64,000 nt of DNA, from assembly GCA_964016885.1 (NCBI GenBank), contig OZ024745.1:130448001-130512000 (forward strand). The letters are read 5' to 3'. Source of the DNA: Eledone cirrhosa. Taxonomy: Eukaryota. Made by a program: the position numbers and the translations under genes. Under the pieces are notes generated by a model. That model was not told the DNA's origin, did no database searches, and saw only the letters and a list, made by a program, of their open reading frames with translations. Numbering within the stretch: position 1 is the first letter of the stretch; each line of letters begins with the position of its first letter. Positions 7,426 to 61,987 of this stretch are shown piece after piece.

Positions 7426-8596
7426 TATATATTAAATATGTATCTATGTATATATTAATATATATATATATACATATATATATATATCTGTATATAGGTA
7501 TATACATGTATATAAATATATATGATTCCATGTATGTATGTACACGCAAAGATATATATCATACGTACATATCCAATCTGTACCGAATCACTGCTTCGTT
7601 GACTATATAGCTCTCATTTATCGATAATATTTCTATGGAACACGTCTCACAGATAACGAAGCAACCCAATTAGCAGTAGTGTTGTATTTATGATGCAATG
7701 TAGACATAGGGAACTTCAGATGAGCAGAACAACGGGTTAGAAAGTTAGCCTTAGAAATATATAATGATGAATATCATTAAGACGGCATTTAATTAGAGGT
7801 TTTTCAGTTGTTTTATGCTATCTAGTGGAGGTGAAATATCTGCTGAGTTCTGAATACATACATTATATTTCATTTATCTTTTCAATCGAAGCTCAGGACG
7901 ATAACGATCAAGCATAATTGCAAACTTGAAACACTACTCCGAATTCAGTTCATGAACGAGTTAACTAACTACTGAACTGTAAAAGACTTCGATTATTGAT
8001 TTCGCACATTGGTAATAAGCGAAATCACATGATTGTAAACCTATTACTATATAATTTGATTTAGACACAGGAGGATGTAAAATTGACAGCGAACTCAAAT
8101 GAAAGAGTATTGATAATTTTGGTTTACTTTGTGAAGGACAGTGTACAAGAAGAGTGTATTGGACTGTGAAATTATCAGAAGAATTCTTTCTAAACCGAAT
8201 TTGTGATCTAAGAATATAAGTTGCTTCTCATATATACATATATCTACTAAAACAGCTACGTTGATATTGATGATGATATTATAAACGATGATGATGGGTG
8301 CGATGAATATACATCAACACATCTATACACACCCACACACACTTATAATATGCCAAATGAATGACAAATGAATACATACATAAATAGATACTTATGTATC
8401 TATATCGTTAATACATATGCGTATATATTCTCACACACAAACATAACTATATATATATATGTATATATGTATATATGTATATATGAAGTATTTCCATAGG
8501 AAAGGTAAAGGAAAAGAGAGTGCTCTATATAGGCTACATAACTTTTTAGTTATGTAATAAAAAAAACAGTCGTCAGAAAGAATAACATAGAATGTT

Positions 8597-8660
8597 ATTC
8601 TTTCTGACGACTGAAGACAGATATAAATATATGTCTTCAAGAAACCACTGGTAAATGAAT
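8597..8660 (+). ncRNA. Type I hammerhead ribozyme motif
   Basis: ATTCTTT-CTGACGA-C-TGAAGACA/TGTCTTCA-A-GAAA-CC ACT GG-TA-AATGAAT; GUA cleavage triplet; stem I 6/7 paired; preceded by a fold-back copy at 8565-8588. Confidence 0.7.
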
Positions 8661-8889: not shown

Positions 8890-8968
8890 AGAGCAGACAT
8901 GGCTCTATAGTCAACGAATTCTCTTGGCAATCACATGTTTTCGGGTTCAATACCCTTCCAGTGAAATA

Positions 8969-9015
<47 letters not shown>

Positions 9016-9177
9016 TACACGGGTGTGTATGATTGTGTATAGAAGATTATATTAATAAAAGGAATTCCAACTTTGTCTGATTTATTCGTTTTATTTACAA
9101 ACCTTTAAAATTTATAATGATATTAGAATGAAATAGTATGGTAGAATATTAAATGTTAAATATTAACATATATCTAT

Positions 9178-10254
9178 CTAAGGCGGGTAAAATTCCCGAG
9201 ATCCATGGACGAGTTCTCTCCAGCGGTCTCTGTCCCTCATTATCGCTGCCATGTCCTGCGTCTCCAACAGACCAGTGTCTGTCCTTAGGGCATCAATATA
9301 CGTTAACCTTGGTCTTCCTTTTCTAGTGTGTCCATGTAGGGACTCCCAAAGGAGCACTGAGTGCAATGTCAACTCTGGATGTCGGTGAGCATGTTCAGCT
9401 AACCTCAGTCTCCTCTGTGTCACTTTTGAGCTGACTTTTGGGATGCTCCCATACAGCTCTGAGTTTTTCATCCTCAGTGTATACTGATTAATGTTCAGAG
9501 CCATCCTCAGCATTCTCGTGTAGCACCCATCCACCATCTGAGTGAGTTTCTTGGTCAGTGTCCAAGTCTCAGACCCATACAGCAGTACAGACTCCACTAC
9601 AGCAATGAAGAGGCGGATTTTCAGGTCTCTACGAAGGTCCGACCTCCACACCGATCTCAAGCTGTGGCACGCCGCCCAGGCCTTGCTCTTCCTCTCAACC
9701 ACATCTTCTTCCGTATTCCCAATCTTTGCTCCCAAATACAGGAAGCCCTCAACCAATTCTAGCGGCTTCCCGCCTACATTAGTGATCCCCTCTGGCTTCT
9801 CAACATTCTCTACCAGATATTTTGTTTTAGTCTCATTCATTATCAGCCCCACACTCATCGACACAGTCTCAACCTCCCGCATCAAATCCTCTGCCTCCTT
9901 CACTGTATTTGTCACCAAAACTATGTCGTCGGCAAATTCAGCATCCGATACCTTTTTCGCCCTAACTCTCCTGCTCTGAGCTGGTGCTACAGTAAAACCA
10001 GAGTCCTGGTGTTTCTCCAGTGCAAGGCGCATACAATAGTCCACTACGATGATAAAAAGGTAGGGAGCCAATGTATCCCCCTGGAGCAGTCCAGCTAGTA
10101 TCTCAAAGAACTCTGTCATCCCATCAGGTGTAATGACTTGGGCTTTGGTGTTGGTGTAGAGCAGTGATATCAGGTCCACTATCTTCTTGGGGATTCCATA
10201 AGCCTGTAAGATCTTCATCAGGCAGTAACGGTCCACAGAATCAAAGGCCTTCTT
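9178..10254 (-). mobile_element. 5'-truncated RTE-clade LINE, reverse transcriptase C-terminal part (uninterrupted frame)
   Basis: [40 protein letters not shown] and RRLRLA.H motifs; the N-terminal IY run of the ORF track is only the flanking (TA)n. Confidence 0.92.
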
Positions 10255-10255
10255 A

Positions 10256-10636
<381 letters not shown>

Positions 10637-10639
<3 letters not shown>

Positions 10640-10773
10640 AAAATGTTCAAGACCCCGACGGCAGAGCTCAAGCCCTTTCAACGGCTATTTCTGGACTGAA
10701 ATAGCCGTCGAAACGGCTCGAGCTTTGCCGTCGGGGTCTTGAACATTTTCCTATTACCCACTCTACTACACTA

Positions 10774-10779
<6 letters not shown>
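10637..10779 (+). mobile_element. Family B palindromic element
   Basis: Palindrome 10637-10752 centred on ggctatttc-tggact-gaaatagcc; GAAAC-GGC...GCC-GTC-GGGGTC; flanked by (TA)n. Confidence 0.85.
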
Positions 10780-10820
<41 letters not shown>

Positions 10821-24967: not shown

Positions 24968-25019
<52 letters not shown>

Positions 25020-25065
25020 CCAAATATTAACAAATGAAAGATATTCACAGAATCAAAATATATGC

Positions 25066-25128
25066 TTTATTATATATATTTCAAAGGTACTCTGTTGTTG
25101 TTTTTTCAGTACGTCTTCATCAGATAAA
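25066..25128 (-). ncRNA. Type I hammerhead (family A, inverted copy)
   Basis: TTTAT-CTGATGA-AGAC GTACT/AGTAC CTTT-GAAA-TATATA-TA-ATAAA. Confidence 0.8.
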
Positions 25129-25228
25129 ATATATGATTTGATATATGACATACCGCTATTCCAGTATTGCCTATACTGGAATTGTATAATCAAGACCGTA
25201 GCGGTATGTCATATATCAAATTATATAT

Positions 25229-25292
25229 TTTATCTGATGAAGACGTACTGAAAAAAAAAAAAACACAGTACCTTTGAAATATATATAATAAA
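25229..25292 (+). ncRNA. Type I hammerhead (family A)
   Basis: TTTAT-CTGATGA-AGA C GTACTG/CAGTAC C TTT-GAAA-TATATA-TA-ATAAA; intact core, palindromic stem III. Confidence 0.85.
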
Positions 25293-25450
25293 GCATATAT
25301 TTTGATTCTGTGAATATCTTTCATTTGTTAATATTTTGAATAATATTAAAAACTCCAGGAAAACCTTTTTGTTGAGTGCTCTTAATCTATTGTAAAATAG
25401 AATAAGTAATCAACGAACCATATTAATCTTTGGTCATATATATATACAGT

Positions 25451-29434: not shown

Positions 29435-29868
<434 letters not shown>

Positions 29869-32574: not shown

Positions 32575-32988
32575 TAATATTAATTCAAAATATTAACAAA
32601 ATAGATATTCTTGTGAGCAATTATATTTTATTATACATATTTCAGAGGTACTGAGTTAAGTTCAACAGTACGTCCTCATCAGATAAAATAAAATGATACA
32701 TGACATACCCTGACATATTAGATGGTTAAGATTTAGTCATGGTAGTGATTAACTTATGACAAAACTCAATATTTATACCCTAATATTGTGAAGATGAGAT
32801 AACATAATACAAACAATAGAGAGGGTGAGTGTAATAGAGTTTAAGAAATACATGGCATCAATATAACAGTTATAACATTTTGGAATTTTAAAAACTACTG
32901 GAGAAAGAGGAGGGAAAGGAAAGCATAGAGGAAGAAACATTCTTTGATGTATTCATTGAACCTTGTTTAACTTTTAAATATATATATA

Positions 32989-33053
<65 letters not shown>

Positions 33054-33195
33054 CAAAGAGTTATTTAATTTGTTGGTTATTCAACAAATCTTATTATAAC
33101 AGATTCGAAGCACTCTACAGTATTCTTCTGGAGTATAATATCAATGATATTAATAAATGGAAACTATCCTTTATAAACCCTATTTATTTGATTAT
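32575..33195 (-). mobile_element. Family A element pieces separated by (TA)n
   Basis: HHR plus upstream region at 32575-32975; tail copy at 33051-33195. Confidence 0.7.
32624..32690 (-). ncRNA. Type I hammerhead (family A)
   Basis: TATTTTAT-CTGATGA-GGA C GTACTG/CAGTAC C TCT-GAAA-TATGTA-TA-ATAAAATA; 8-bp stem I. Confidence 0.85.
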
Positions 33196-35136: not shown

Positions 35137-35340
35137 TAACGAAGGAAGTGTAGTAAGGAACCAGGTGGACCATAACCCACCAGAGTATTCGATACTTTGT
35201 ACTTTGGATAGTAGAGTGGGTAATAGGAAAAGAGTCAGGATCTCGACGGCAGAGCTCAAGCCGTTTCGACGGCTATTTCTGGACAGAAATAGCCGTCGAA
35301 ACGTCTTGAGCCCTGCCGTCGGTGTTTTAACTCTTTTCCT
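35137..35340 (-). mobile_element. Family B palindromic element
   Basis: Centre gacggctatttct-ggac-agaaatagccgtc; reverse-complemented tail. Confidence 0.85.
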
Positions 35341-35473: not shown

Positions 35474-35520
35474 ATACATACGATATTAACAAATGGAAAC
35501 TATATTTATAAAACCATATT

Positions 35521-35585
35521 TATTTGATTATACATATTTCAAGGACACCAAGTTAAATTATGGTGTGCTTTCATCAGATAAAATA
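35521..35585 (-). ncRNA. Type I hammerhead (family A)
   Basis: TATTTTAT-CTGATGA-AAG C ACACCA/TGGTGT C CTT-GAAA-TATGTA-TA-ATCAAATA. Confidence 0.82.
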
Positions 35586-35784
35586 TAATATAGAGCAGTT
35601 TTATAAATAAATATTGACATACCCTTAAAGAATGCAACCATTACTGTTGGAAGCTCCCGGGAGCTTCCAACATATATCTACATATATATACATTACATAT
35701 GATCATGTTCGCTATTTTCAATATGCCTCATTGTTGTCCTTGTACCTAAATGAGAAACCAAACCATTACTATAAATGATAGTGA

Positions 35785-39319: not shown

Positions 39320-39572
39320 GAGGAGGAGGAGGAGGAGGAGGGGGGGGGGGGGCGATCCATTGAACGAATCGCCCAGTATATACGTATAAGTAGTACAATG
39401 CGTGAATTTTAGTAAATGTTCGGTCAGTGAAGTCGAGTACACACAGACACACACACACACACACACAACACCCCCACTACCCCCCACACACACACCACCA
39501 CCACCCATATATATATATATATATATAGTGACGAAACATAAGTCAATTGCATGAACTCATAATCCTTTATTT

Positions 39573-39628
39573 ACTGCTATATATATTTCGATGATAGCCA
39601 TTGAATGGCTATGACCTCATCAGGCAGT
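39573..39628 (-). ncRNA. Type I hammerhead ribozyme
   Basis: ACTGC-CTGATGA-GGT C ATAGCCAT/ATGGCTAT C ATC-GAAA-TATATA-TA-GCAGT; all stems pair. Confidence 0.88.
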
Positions 39629-39706
39629 TAGTCAGTTCTTAGATATGCCAGCTCTGTGTTTATAGTGTTGATGGTATCAGAGCCTTGGGACATATATATA
39701 TATATA

Positions 39707-42719: not shown

Positions 42720-43466
42720 AGTTGTGTGTGTGTGTGTGTGTGTGGAGGGGGGTTATTTATTGCCATCATTTAGAAATCTATGTCTTCCGAGAATCTGGTA
42801 CATTGAAACTGTGGAACCAATGTTGTTTTGAAGGCTTTTTATTAAAATTGCACTTTCTTCTTTTTCTTCTTCTTCTCCTTTTGCAATGACCCTTCCATTG
42901 AACAATCAATGAATTTCGTAAGATGTGTACATAACAACAACAACAACAACAACAACAATAACAACTAATAATAATAATAATAATAATAATAATGATAACA
43001 ACGACAATGAATGATAATAGTAATGTTTTCTTATATTATATATCATATAAAATAATAATAATAATAATAACAATAATAATATATTTAACGGTAGTTGTGG
43101 TGGGAGGAAGTGATCGTGCTGATGAAGATGATGATGATGAGGATGATGATGATAATAGTGAATAATTAGATAAAACAATGCAGATGTACGTGAGGTATTT
43201 ACCGAAATTCCATGAAAACATTGTTATATAAATCTATTGTTTAGATAAATGTTTGTAATCAAAGGAAGGAGGACAGTAACAACAACAATGAAAATAATAA
43301 TATATAAAAAAACAAGAAGAAAAGTATAGCTGCCATCTTATTTTTCGTTTTGTCGTATTACCAAACACAAGTAAAGTGTACACACTTACACACTCTTCCG
43401 ACACACGGACTTAAACACCCAAAACCGTATTAAAATACTGAAATATAGACAAACAAATTTGATTTT

Positions 43467-46089
43467 ATGTGATGTATGTGATGTATGTGATGTATGTAAT
43501 GTATGTGATGTATGTGATGTGTGTGATGTATGTGATGTATGTGACGTATGTGATGTATGTGATGTATGTGATGTATGTGATGTATGTGATGTATGTGATG
43601 TAGGTAATGTATGTGATGTATGTGACGTATGTGATGTATGTGATGTATGTGACGTATGTGATGTATGTAATGTATGTGATGTATGTGATGTGTGTGATGT
43701 ATGTGATGTATGTGACGTATGTGATGTATGTGATGTATGTGATGTATGTGACGTATGTGACGTATGTGATGTATGTGATGTATGTGACGTATGTGATGTA
43801 TGTAATATATGTAATGTATGTAATGTATGTGATGTATGTAATGTATGTGATGTATGTAACGTATGTGATGTATGTGATGTATGTGACGTATGTGATGTAT
43901 GTAATGTATGTAATGTATGTGATGTATGAGATGTGTGTAATGTATGTAATGTATGTAATGTATGTAATGTATGTGACGTATGTAATGTATGTAATGTATG
44001 TAATGTATGTAATGTATGTAATGTATGTGATATATGTAATGTATGTGATGTATGTGATGTATATAATGTATGTAATGTATGTGATGTATGTGATGTATGT
44101 GACGTATGTGATGTATGTAATGTATGTAATGTATGTGATGTATGAGATGTGTGTAATGTATGTAATGTATGTAATGTATGTAATGTATGTGACGTATGTA
44201 ATGTATGTAATGTATGTAATGTATGTAATGTATGTAATGTATGTGATATATGTAATGCATGTGATGTATGTTATGTGTGTGATGTATGTGATGTATGTGA
44301 TGTATGTAATGTATGTAATGTATGTAATGTATGTAAAGTATGTGACGTATGTAATGTATGTAATGTATGTAATGTATGTAATGTATGTAATGTATGTGAC
44401 GTATGTAATGTATGTAATGTATGTGATGTATGTAATGTATGTGATGTATGTAATGTATGTGATGTGTGTGATGTATGTAATGTGTGTAATGTATGTAATG
44501 TATGTGATGTATGTGATGTGTGTGATGTATGTGATGTATGTGATGTATGTAATGTATGTAATGTATGTGACGTATGCAATGTATGTAATGTATGTAATGT
44601 ATGTAATGTATGTGAAGTGTGTGATGTATGTAATGTATGTAATGTATGTAATGTATGTGATGTATGTAATGTATGTGATGTGTGTGATGTATGTAATGTA
44701 TGTAATGTATGAGATGTATGTGATGTATGTGACGTATGTGATGTATGTAATGTATGTGATGTATGTGATGTATGTGATGTATGTGATGTATGTGATCTAT
44801 GTGATGTGTGTGATCTATGTAATGTATGTAATGTATGTAATGTATGTGATGTATGTGATGTGTGTGATGTATATAATGTATGTAATGTATGTAATGTATG
44901 TGACGTATGTAATGTATGTGATGTATGTAATGTATGAGATGTATGTGATGTATGTGATGTGTGTGATGTATGTAATGTATGTAATGTATGTGATGTATGT
45001 AATGTATGTAATGTATGTAATGTATGTGACGTATGTAATGTATGAAATGTATGAGTTGTATGTAATGTATGTAATGTATGCAATGTATGTAATGTATGTG
45101 ATATATGTGATGTATGTGATGTGTGTGATGTATGTAATGTATGTAATGTATGTAATGTATGTGACGTATGTAATGTATGTAATGTATGAGATGTATGTGA
45201 TGTATGTGACGTATGTGATGTATGTAATGTATGTGATGTATGTGATGTATGTGATGTATGTGACGTATGTAATGTATGTAATGTATGTAATGTATGTAAT
45301 GTATGTGACGTATGTAATGTATGTAATGTATGTAATGTATGTGATGTGTGTGATGTATGTGATGTATGTGATGTATGTTACGTATGTAATGTATGTGACG
45401 TATGTGATGTATGTCATGTATGTAATGTATGTGACGTACGTGATGTATGTGATGTATGTGATGTATGTGATGTATGTGATGTATGTGATGTATGTGATGT
45501 ATGTGACGTATGTAATGTATGTGATGTATGTAATGTATGTGACGTATGTAATATATGTGACGTATGTGATGTATGTGATGTATGTAATGTATGTGATGTA
45601 TGTGATGTATGTGACGTATGTGATGTATGTGATGTATGTAATGTATGTGATGTATGTAATGTATGTGACGTATGTGATGTATGTGATGTATGTAATGTAT
45701 GTGATGTATATGATGTATGTGATGTATGTAATATATGTGATGTATGTGATGTATGTGATGTATGTAATGTATGTGATGTATGTAATGTATGTGACGTATG
45801 TAATGTATGTGATGTATGTGATGTATGTGATGTATGTAATGTATGTGATGTATGTGATGTATGTGACGTATGTAATGTATGTGACGTATGTGATGTATGT
45901 GATGTATGTAATGTATGTAATGTATGTGACGTACGTGATGTATGTAATATATGTGACGTACGTGATGTATGTAATGTATGTGATGTATGTGACGTATGTA
46001 ATGTATGTGACGTATGTGATGTATGTGATGTATGTAATGTATGTAATCTATGTGACGTACGTGATGTATGTAATGTATGTGATGTATGT
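43467..46089. repeat. 2.6-kb 9-bp minisatellite (TATGTGATG / TATGTAATG / TATGTGACG)
   Basis: Direct reading; source of the 861-aa MYV ORF. Confidence 0.97.
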
Positions 46090-59594: not shown

Positions 59595-59846
59595 GTGTGT
59601 GTGTGTTGTGTGTATGCTCTCAAAAGATTATATATATATATATATATTATATATATATATATATATATAAAATATATAAGATCAAAAGATGGTTAAAAGA
59701 GTTCCATGTATTTTATTATGCGCATTTCAAAAACAAATATCATTATGCAATAACACACTTGTGAATAGTGCAGTTTTAAATCAACATATGTTGATTTAAA
59801 ACTGCACTATTCACAAGTGTGTTTTAACCTTCATATCATGTCTCCC

Positions 59847-59917
59847 TATTTTATCTGATGAAAACGCAAATGTTATTGCATGATGATATTTGTTTTTGAA
59901 ATGCGCATAATAAAATA
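59847..59917 (+). ncRNA. Type I hammerhead (family A)
   Basis: TATTTTAT-CTGATGA-AAA C GCAAATGTTAT/ATGATATTTGT T TTT-GAAA-TGCGCA-TA-ATAAAATA. Confidence 0.88.
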
Positions 59918-60046
59918 CATGGAACTCTTTTAAACATCTTTTGATCTTATATATTATTATTTATACTCCAGTTCTACAAACTGTAGAGTACTTCTTATCC
60001 GATATCTGCATTGCTTTATTGTACTACAATAAAACTCACCTCCTAC

Positions 60047-60101
<55 letters not shown>

Positions 60102-60788: not shown

Positions 60789-61844
60789 GGAGGTGAGTTT
60801 TATTGTAGTACAATAAAGCAATGCAGATATCGGATAAGAAGCACTCTACAGTTTGTAGGACTGGAGTCCTACAAACTGTAGAGTGCTTCTTATACATAAT
60901 ATATACATAATATACATAATATATAAGATAAAAAGATGGTTAAAAGAGTTCCATGTATTTTATTATGCGCATTTCAAAGTTATTTATTTTTCAAAGTTAT
61001 TTATCATACATTATATAATACTTGTTACACATTCTATATCACTCCTATTTAACACTTCCCTTTCTTCCTTTTCCTTTTCTTTTCTTTTTCTTTTAATTTC
61101 TAACCCCTAATCTGTACCTTTTCTCACTGTGCCTAACATTGAAACAATTATTACATAATACAATATATTCTTACTTTATATCACCTTGAAAAAATCCTTC
61201 GTAAACAAACATTTTTTTTGACGTTAGATATTCATCCTCAATTCATTATTTTTTTCTCCCTTTCATCTAACTTACTCATGCTCATCTCACAATATATCCT
61301 TACTTACATTACTTGTGTTTTTTTAATAATTCATGTCAACATTTTCTTTCTATCCCTTAAATATTATTCTTAATACATATTAACATTTTCTTTCTATCGC
61401 ACATATTATTAAACCCTTAAATATTATTCTTAATACATATTAACAATTTCTTTTCATCGCACATATTATTAAACCCTTCAATATACAAACCTTAACTTTA
61501 CATCATTTTTTTCTCTTCGTTAATTTTCAAATTCTTTTAATTTATACATTATCTTCCAACGGTTTTTCAACCTCTCTATGTAAAACAATATATTTTTCAC
61601 AGTTATAAAAGCTATCTCTCTCTCTATATCACCCATCTCTCCTCCTATCTCATCCTTCCTCATTATACTCCTCCCCCTCCACTTTTTACTCTCATCTCCT
61701 CCTCTTTTTCATCCTTTCCAACCCCCCCCCCCCTCAAAACATTTTTTTCCCCAATATCACACATCAATCTAAAACTACTTTTCATATGTTGATTTAAAAC
61801 TGCACTATCCACAAGTGTGTTTTAACCTTCATATCATGTCTTCC

Positions 61845-61915
61845 TATTTTATCTGATGAAAACACAAATATTATTGCATGATGATATTTGTTTTTGAAAT
61901 GCGCATAATAAAATA
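61845..61915 (+). ncRNA. Type I hammerhead (family A)
   Basis: As 59847, with two G-U pairs replaced by A-U in stem II (ACAAATATTAT). Confidence 0.88.
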
Positions 61916-61945
61916 CATGGAACTCTTTTAACCATCTTTTGATCT

Positions 61946-61987
<42 letters not shown>

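Follow-up and report, generated by a model that had tools for sequence, protein, structure and literature searches.

The window analysed here, a 64,000-nucleotide stretch of the Eledone cirrhosa genome (assembly GCA_964016885.1, contig OZ024745.1, positions 130,448,001 to 130,512,000 of the forward strand), holds at 24972–25446 a head-to-head insertion in a (TA)n microsatellite, which forms its left flank (24972–25015) and its right flank (25436–25446). The inverted arm (25012–25167, minus strand) starts at a point, site A, equivalent to 25346, has a small internal deletion near its far end and stops near a predicted transcription start; its hammerhead motif (25065–25129, minus strand) has its core at 25123–25117 and a predicted cut between 25071 and 25070. 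The direct arm (25168–25439, plus strand) has its 5′ end 2 nt from the predicted +1 (at −66 of the reference, where +1 is −68) and its 3′ end at a second site, B (25434–25439, with TA microhomology). Its predicted type I hammerhead (25228–25293, plus strand) is made up of stem I (25228–25233 with 25288–25293), the core (25234–25240), a stem II at 25241–25275 in which C25244 faces C25272, the GAAA at 25276–25279 and a palindrome at 25279–25286; cleavage is predicted after A25287. The one-sided tail between sites A and B (25347–25439, plus strand) includes, 6 nt 3′ of site A, a hairpin motif of the form RCTCC...GAGYRCT (motif A, 25352–25380, plus strand), a second copy of which follows site B in tandem elements.

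These are two of eight hammerhead-like motifs (at 10499, 25066, 25229, 32624, 35521, 39573, 59847 and 61845) that a sequence-only reading had picked out in the window, and their places, basal pairs, upper helices and palindromes are all confirmed. The core said to be common to them, CTGATGA, is present in seven. The motif at 10499 reads ATGATGA (A at 10507), with A for C3, and has two surplus bases past the cut site; it is probably inactive, because an anole element loses cleavage when its C3 is changed (PMC11167929). The motif at 35521 has a mismatch in stem I and falls short of the 5-bp stem rule. The type I core CUGANGA...GAAA...UH is intact in seven of eight. Nor are the eight independent examples: 25066 and 25229 are arms of a single insertion, and 59847 and 61845 belong to one family. 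Stem III is self-complementary, as described, in the TATATA and TGCGCA motifs, whereas TATGTA is an imperfect palindrome; the computed self-duplex energies are −3.2, −10.5 and −2.2 kcal/mol, respectively. The predicted minimum-energy fold of an isolated motif lacks the three basal pairs of stem II. An alternative register with a bulged base after A9 was considered and, by eye, does not pair.

The remaining motifs lie in further insertions, and insertion into (TA)n is borne out. At 10380–10562 (plus strand) there is a decayed head-to-head insertion of the AAG family, comprising the hammerhead with A for C3 (10507) and a tail-bearing stub on the minus strand at about 10380–10503. A family 2 arm at 32575–32977 (minus strand, core 32682) ends at site A, retains about 260 nt of 3′ UTR and is joined by a 35-nt site-B stub on the other strand. 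Another AAG-family arm, at 35478–35672 (minus strand, core 35577), also ends at site A, and a GGT-family arm, for which no link to an open reading frame (ORF) was seen, occupies 39525–39705 (minus strand, core 39623). The TGCGCA family is represented by a head-to-head insertion with C·U at 59675–60048 (plus strand), in which the direct arm (59785–60048) is tailed and the inverted arm has lost its core by deletion, and by an arm at 60989–61950 (plus strand, core 61853) that ends at site A and has about 860 nt of 3′ UTR. An AAG-family stub consisting of the tail alone is found at 33050–33180, with (TA)n on one side, unrelated DNA on the other and hairpin motif A present. A palindromic G+C-rich repeat in (TA)n, at 10641–10780 and near 35300 and 39750, is very common beside these elements at many loci.

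Dimers of hammerheads from Penelope-like elements (PLEs) are on record (Lunse et al. 2017, as cited in the review PMC6765202), and cleavage in dimeric form had been proposed for the motifs. The head-to-head arms cannot form such a dimer, because the two motifs lie on opposite strands; a transcript of the locus would hold one ribozyme paired with its own antisense, in a predicted hairpin of −227 kcal/mol.

The stems have been maintained by compensatory change. In an alignment of the eight motifs, 96.3% of 136 cells are paired and 12 of 17 pairs differ on both sides; none of 500 shuffles is as good, and slid registers give only 38–54% pairing. The covariation reported earlier is thus upheld, as is structural selection across families, given the compensatory changes in stems I and II. 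A larger set of 260 distinct motifs was drawn from all fetched loci; it is enriched for three families, and its members are hence not independent. In this set, positions 1–3 of stem II are paired in 247, 255 and 249 motifs and positions 5–9 in 239, 248, 245, 229 and 228 (88–98%), as against 4% for position 4. When the motifs are reduced to 14 cluster types (18 singletons omitted), 104 of 112 cells pair, compared with a mean of 71.8 and a maximum of 87 in 20,000 shuffles. G·U pairs far outnumber A·C (209 versus 34), which favours the sense RNA as the strand that folds. The motifs are a real, structurally selected feature. Their architecture is that of the type I hammerheads in Penelope-like pLTRs, as had been suggested, and self-cleavage after the UH triplet is predicted.

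A census was made with a descriptor that did not require the mismatch, applied to 60 fixed round-coordinate stretches of 10 kb (599.6 kb in all). It gave 33 matches, and none in each of five shuffles. Eleven of the 33 belong to one 310-bp tandem array of a different hammerhead type; 18 are of the long-helix type, which extrapolates to about 90,000 copies (53,000–142,000) in the 3.0-Gb genome. The window is richer than average, with six strict matches in 64 kb versus three in the flanking 120 kb. Rfam gave six matches at E ≤ 10 for 25190–25440, none to a hammerhead family, and no hammerhead family is among the matches listed for the whole window (150 of 516); the hammerhead models do not fit so long a stem II. 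Searches of Rfam, Pfam and PDB returned nothing relevant.

Other hammerhead types occur alongside. The window contains a head-to-head pair with a short stem II and a longer stem III (29760–29860; cores at 29795, minus strand, and 29806, plus strand), to which motifs at L062 and L080 are similar, and a head-to-head CTGACGA motif with a long stem II and the loop CCACTGG (8560–8660), which has relatives at L087 and L033. Elsewhere, L105 is a retrozyme-like array in which a 310-bp unit with a short-stem hammerhead and a CGCG loop is repeated eleven times in tandem, and L195, L200 and L035 carry another C·C family with the loop TGATCA and U·U at the first position of stem II.

The fourth position of stem II behaves differently from its neighbours. 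The conserved C-C mismatch that had been proposed holds for the 5′ C, which is kept, and fails for its partner, which varies; the constant element is a C facing a base other than G. In the 260 motifs the position is C·C in 185, C·U in 43, C·A in 11, U·C in nine and paired in ten, and in the 14 cluster types it is C·C in ten, C·U in two and paired in two. Copies of the GGT family with G-C at this position exist (L094). The closing pair of stem II is A-U in 116 motifs, G·U in 77 and G-C in 53 of 260, a weaker closure than in the metazoan PLE minimal hammerheads described by Cervera and De la Pena (2014, PMC4209133), in which G10.1-C11.1 is usual. With those hammerheads the motifs share type I topology, a long helix II, a palindromic helix III, many covarying families per genome, dispersed truncated copies and opposite-strand pairs 100–700 bp apart. 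They differ in having no extra base between A9 and 10.1 and in the internal mismatch after 3 bp.

What carries the motifs can be read from relatives of the locus. A search with the arm at 25190–25400 gave 3,009 candidates in the genome, the best 40 of which are 93–96% identical, and several relatives extend upstream into a long 3′ UTR, then a GIY-YIG endonuclease and a reverse transcriptase (RT). The RT itself gave 26,591 candidates, with a longest open frame of 750 amino acids among the 150 scored. At 20 RT loci, members of these hammerhead families follow the RT, in many cases with an inverted copy upstream of it as well. Ten tandem copies agree on the order TATA, TCA(+1), 64–68 nt, hammerhead core, cut, 210–215 nt and ATG, so that the motif recurs 210–215 nt 5′ of the start codon. 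The whole unit, 4.3 kb at L076 and 4.7 kb at L062, runs from TATA box, TCA(+1), hammerhead, site A, hairpin A, site B and hairpin B to ATG, RT, a CxCX5C linker, GIY-YIG and a long 3′ UTR. Its single ORF encodes an RT with a C-terminal GIY-YIG (a 750-residue frame at L061; also L063 and L064). The proteins of these three loci contain DKT, the linker CNCRNKSNC (CxCX5C), CxxC and CxH, and no CCHH. Pfam gives no direct match for the protein; relatives carry PF26215 and, once, PF00078.

The Hydra clade of endonuclease-bearing PLEs, which includes Hydra-1_Obim of octopus, has been described as having DKT for DKG, a CxCX5C linker, CxxC and CxH, and no CCHH (Craig et al. 2021, PMC8557442). The element here shares with it the single ORF, the C-terminal GIY-YIG and all of these motifs, as well as (TA)n insertion, a 3′ hammerhead, an inverted 5′ copy and a one-sided tail; likeness to the published proteins in the supplement was judged by eye. 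We therefore describe it as a Penelope-like element with Hydra-clade motifs, a placement that rests on those motifs. Nematis or Neptune identity was considered and set aside, as the CX2-5CxxC linker and the endonuclease CCHH are both missing. The differences from the published clade are several: a unit of 4.3–4.7 kb with 1.1–2 kb of 3′ UTR, compared with less than 3 kb; a tail of about 95 nt rather than 30–40; RWR at the position of the RWK motif; a stem III reduced to a 2-bp stem with an A/U-rich palindrome; and a stem II of 9–10 positions with C·C, C·U or C·A, where the 26 tabulated Hydra hammerheads have continuous helices of 3–7 bp (PMC8557442). The mismatch is not found in those 26 rows (File S2), which were collected with a canonical descriptor that may be biased against it, and the published hammerhead of Hydra-1_Obim has none.

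The motifs had been taken for a separate non-autonomous family. The same motif with its flanks is, however, found about 1.1–2 kb 3′ of ORFs for RT and GIY-YIG, and the short copies appear from their sequence to be 5′-truncated insertions of these elements. ORF linkage is seen for the AGA/GGA, AAA-GTAC and TGCGCA (L079, L109) families and, at one locus (L066), for AAG. A retrozyme-like family that has a short RNA of its own and is mobilised in trans would account for the great excess of short copies over ORFs (ORF sequence occurs in 6 of 60 random stretches and beside none of the eight window motifs, and the window contains no Hydra-type ORF), for their preferred length, and for the GGT family (39573), whose largest group shows an ORF link in none of four cases. 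We judge it very improbable: the short copies are collinear in every base with the pLTR of ORF-bearing elements, they have no private sequence and form no tandem monomer arrays, and 81 of 251 arms continue into the 3′ UTR. The GGT family also shares both end sites and, by eye, a similar tail motif; searching the genome with the 39573 motif gave no candidates, though relatives are present in the fetched loci. Metazoan non-LTR retrozymes have the type I hammerhead and derivation from PLE pLTRs in common with these copies (PMC7229834; bioRxiv 10.64898/2026.07.22.740005). Retrozymes are tandem non-coding repeats (PMC7229834), whereas the copies here lie scattered, singly or in head-to-head pairs, and are collinear with coding elements; retrozyme identity was set aside, there being no tandem array at the eight sites. 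Solo pLTRs that retain promoter and tail could possibly act as secondary sources.

The window also holds, on the minus strand at about 8900–10250, a LINE RT fragment broken by (TA)n; an open frame of 906 residues at L034:4925–7642 is of the same kind, and both are presumably from an RTE-like LINE. At 43466–46089 a 9-bp unit is repeated over 2.6 kb, and the array has an extreme GC skew.

In every family the arms begin at one of two fixed sites, A and B, about 95 nt apart. Across six groups the median start of the TA run is 43–57 nt after the cut for site A and 137–152 nt for site B. Both ends were seen in 19 ORF-bearing insertions, of which 16 could be classified, as A+B (12), A+A (three) or B+B (one); in sets selected for a tail, the inverted arm begins at A in 15 of 17, 10 of 10 and 16 of 16 cases. 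The hairpin motif starts 6–12 nt past the start of the TA run at A and recurs 96–102 nt farther on, just past B. Both copies are present in nine of ten tandem elements, and of 88 arms with a tail, 74 have copy A (chance about 0.005). Judged by eye, the published Hydra-1_Ajap has this motif twice before its ATG, and Hydra-2_Amil, Hydra-2_Ajap and Hydra-1_Crog each have it once near the 3′ end; the main text of PMC8557442 does not mention a hairpin, stem-loop, palindrome or duplicated motif. Its pairing is read from the sequence, and a consensus fold of ten copies supports part of it.

The 5′ ends were counted in 251 arms of three families, arms chosen by a query spanning the ribozyme being excluded. 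Forty-one have their end no more than 3 nt from the A of TCA(+1), and 58 have it within −3 to +12. A further 81 end upstream of this zone, nine of them in the adjacent 16 nt; 74 end between the zone and the cut, 19 at the cut and 19 just after it. Families 1 and 2 have a TATA box 30–33 nt upstream of +1. The TGCGCA family has the same 5′ edge with no TATA at −30; at its edge stands a palindrome that has TA microhomology and might itself attract junctions. Peaks at −122 and −344 were set aside as subfamilies that diverge from the reference. At exact +1 ends, G stands where the template has C in 6 of 19, too weak a signal to count as cap-G. The simplest reading of the pile-up is run-off of cDNA at a capped end. 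The start site of Drosophila Penelope lies inside the pLTR (PMC2377424). Rotifer pLTRs have a TATA box and a TCACT element, and Penelope of Adineta vaga shares with the present elements this initiator-like sequence, an inverted 5′ pLTR, an optional tail and palindromes at junctions; a pile-up of insertion ends at the initiator, as seen here, is not mentioned in the available text of that report (PMC3846280).

Most arms read through the scissile bond, 213 of the 251 extending past it on the 5′ side by over 8 nt, so that their templates were likely uncut (or re-ligated). The 19 ends at the cut (−8 to +2) include five from one tandem array and three internal deletions; once these are removed, about 1.0 end per nt is left, versus about 0.7 on either side, with no clear peak, and the count is confounded because the TA palindrome invites microhomology joins. 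The array (L320, G000:C184:97746–101004) comprises at least five tandem units of the Hydra 5′ UTR that start 0–4 nt before the predicted cut, run to hairpin B and pass into (TTAGGG)n. Its last unit continues into the ORF, and the telomere-repeat join falls at the cut site; the array is probably one junction amplified in tandem. The insertions at L351, L358 and L328 each combine an arm that ends at the predicted cut with one that ends at the predicted start. Among 68 ORF-bearing copies, 28 run well past +1 and three end near it (+7 to +12), while six have ends 0–20 nt 5′ of the cut; the preceding 53 nt contain no ends. The six give a weak hint, clouded again by TA microhomology, that some templates are cut or circular, or that RT stalls at stem II. 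ORF-bearing copies show no pile-up at +1, and so some other template, either read-through or circular RNA, is needed for the long ones.

Considered together, these features make it probable that the motifs are the ends of PLEs with Hydra motifs, predicted hammerheads whose fixed C may have a damping role, and that the insertion at 24972–25446 arose from uncut RNA copied from two fixed starts to its front end. The RT-endonuclease would bind both hairpins, nick both strands of (TA)n and prime one nicked strand at A and its partner at B. Where the template is the 5′ pLTR of the mRNA, the two cDNAs would each run off the capped end after 170–280 nt and then be joined head to head. The two arms overlap in the template, and therefore priming on one RNA must invoke strand displacement. 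Cutting of the RNA, and perhaps its conversion to circles, would come later or play a minor part. The mismatch, the A-U or G·U closing pair and the A/U palindrome would keep self-cleavage slow or protein-dependent and so spare the template; this is the weakest step, and we advance it tentatively.

Inverted arms might instead arise by fold-back self-priming of one cDNA, or from an antisense template, rather than by two primings. Such a process has been proposed for rotifer elements (PMC3846280), palindromic junctions are common, and the arms do resemble each other: divergence between arms of one insertion is 0.045, 0.022 and 0.030, versus 0.076, 0.050 and 0.073 from other copies, so that same-insertion arms are about half as diverged as arms from different insertions, and the nearest partner is the other arm of the same insertion in 12 of 18 cases. 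The similarity also accords with two primings on one RNA, and gene conversion could be an alternative source of it. Fold-back nevertheless seems improbable, as the site-A arm is often far longer than its would-be template (about 365 nt versus 35 nt at 32682) and nine of 16 ORF insertions combine a long arm at A with a short one at B.

For two primings there is an analogy in the Poseidon element PAc of Anolis, which has an A/T-rich target and two fixed internal RT starts that define a tail (Frangieh et al. 2024, PMC11167929). PAc belongs to another clade, and its starts lie close together within the ORF, unlike those here, which are separated by about 95 nt within the 5′ UTR and are each followed by a copy of the hairpin motif. 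The anole ribozyme depends on protein for cleavage and is dispensable for insertion in vitro, and the main substrate is RNA that has not been cut (PMC11167929). A bolder version of the two-priming model, which we offer as a conjecture more apt to fail than to hold in full, is that a damped hammerhead (fixed C·Y) lies upstream of twin hairpins common to the clade, and that an RT-endonuclease dimer, bound to both hairpins of a single uncut RNA, primes both strands. This arrangement alone could explain the inverted arms, the one-sided 95-nt tail and the tens of thousands of short, strong-stop-like copies that end at the cap.

Three roles may be considered for the unpaired C. The mismatch had been thought to mediate a tertiary contact, and the C is indeed unpaired in 250 of 260 motifs; no covarying partner in stem I is visible, because the C is constant while stem I changes wholly and C·C and C·U motifs share the same stem I. 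A docking or metal site that speeds the ribozyme, substituting for the contact between loop 2 and stem I, would be in keeping with this lack of pairing, seen also in 12 of 14 cluster types amid neighbours that covary, and with the location of the C close to the start of loop 2 in canonical hammerheads whose helix II has 4 bp (PMC4209133). It is made doubtful by the lack of a covarying partner, the tolerance of C, U or A opposite (and of G-C in the GGT copies of L094), the absence of the mismatch from the 26 published Hydra hammerheads (PMC8557442) and the crossing of the cut site by most cDNAs. It is rather unlikely that the C is read by the element's protein, in protein-assisted cleavage or packaging, and not by RNA. 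The constant 5′ C with its free partner and the anole hammerhead that is cleaved only with protein (PMC11167929) are compatible with such reading, but a protein would more plausibly bind the hairpins at sites A and B. Our preference, held short of even confidence, is that the fixed C damps self-cleavage. It is favoured because stem I varies under a fixed C, the basal pairs are absent from the minimum-energy fold, the stem III duplex is weak and the templates are mostly uncut.

Hammerheads, inverted arms, a tail and (TA)n targeting are already published for this class of elements (PMC8557442, the one relevant paper that a literature search on octopus Penelope hammerheads gave). Literature searches gave no paper with an internal C mismatch in Hydra-type PLE hammerheads; Lunse et al. 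(2017) or the supplements of PMC4209133 could hold a similar stem II. The role of hammerheads in PLEs and the origin of the inverted arm and one-sided tail are questions that the literature has posed. With one mismatch fixed across some 90,000 copies, a change of one base can test whether the ribozymes have been tuned down, and what sets the start sites of reverse transcription can be tested directly on the twin hairpins.
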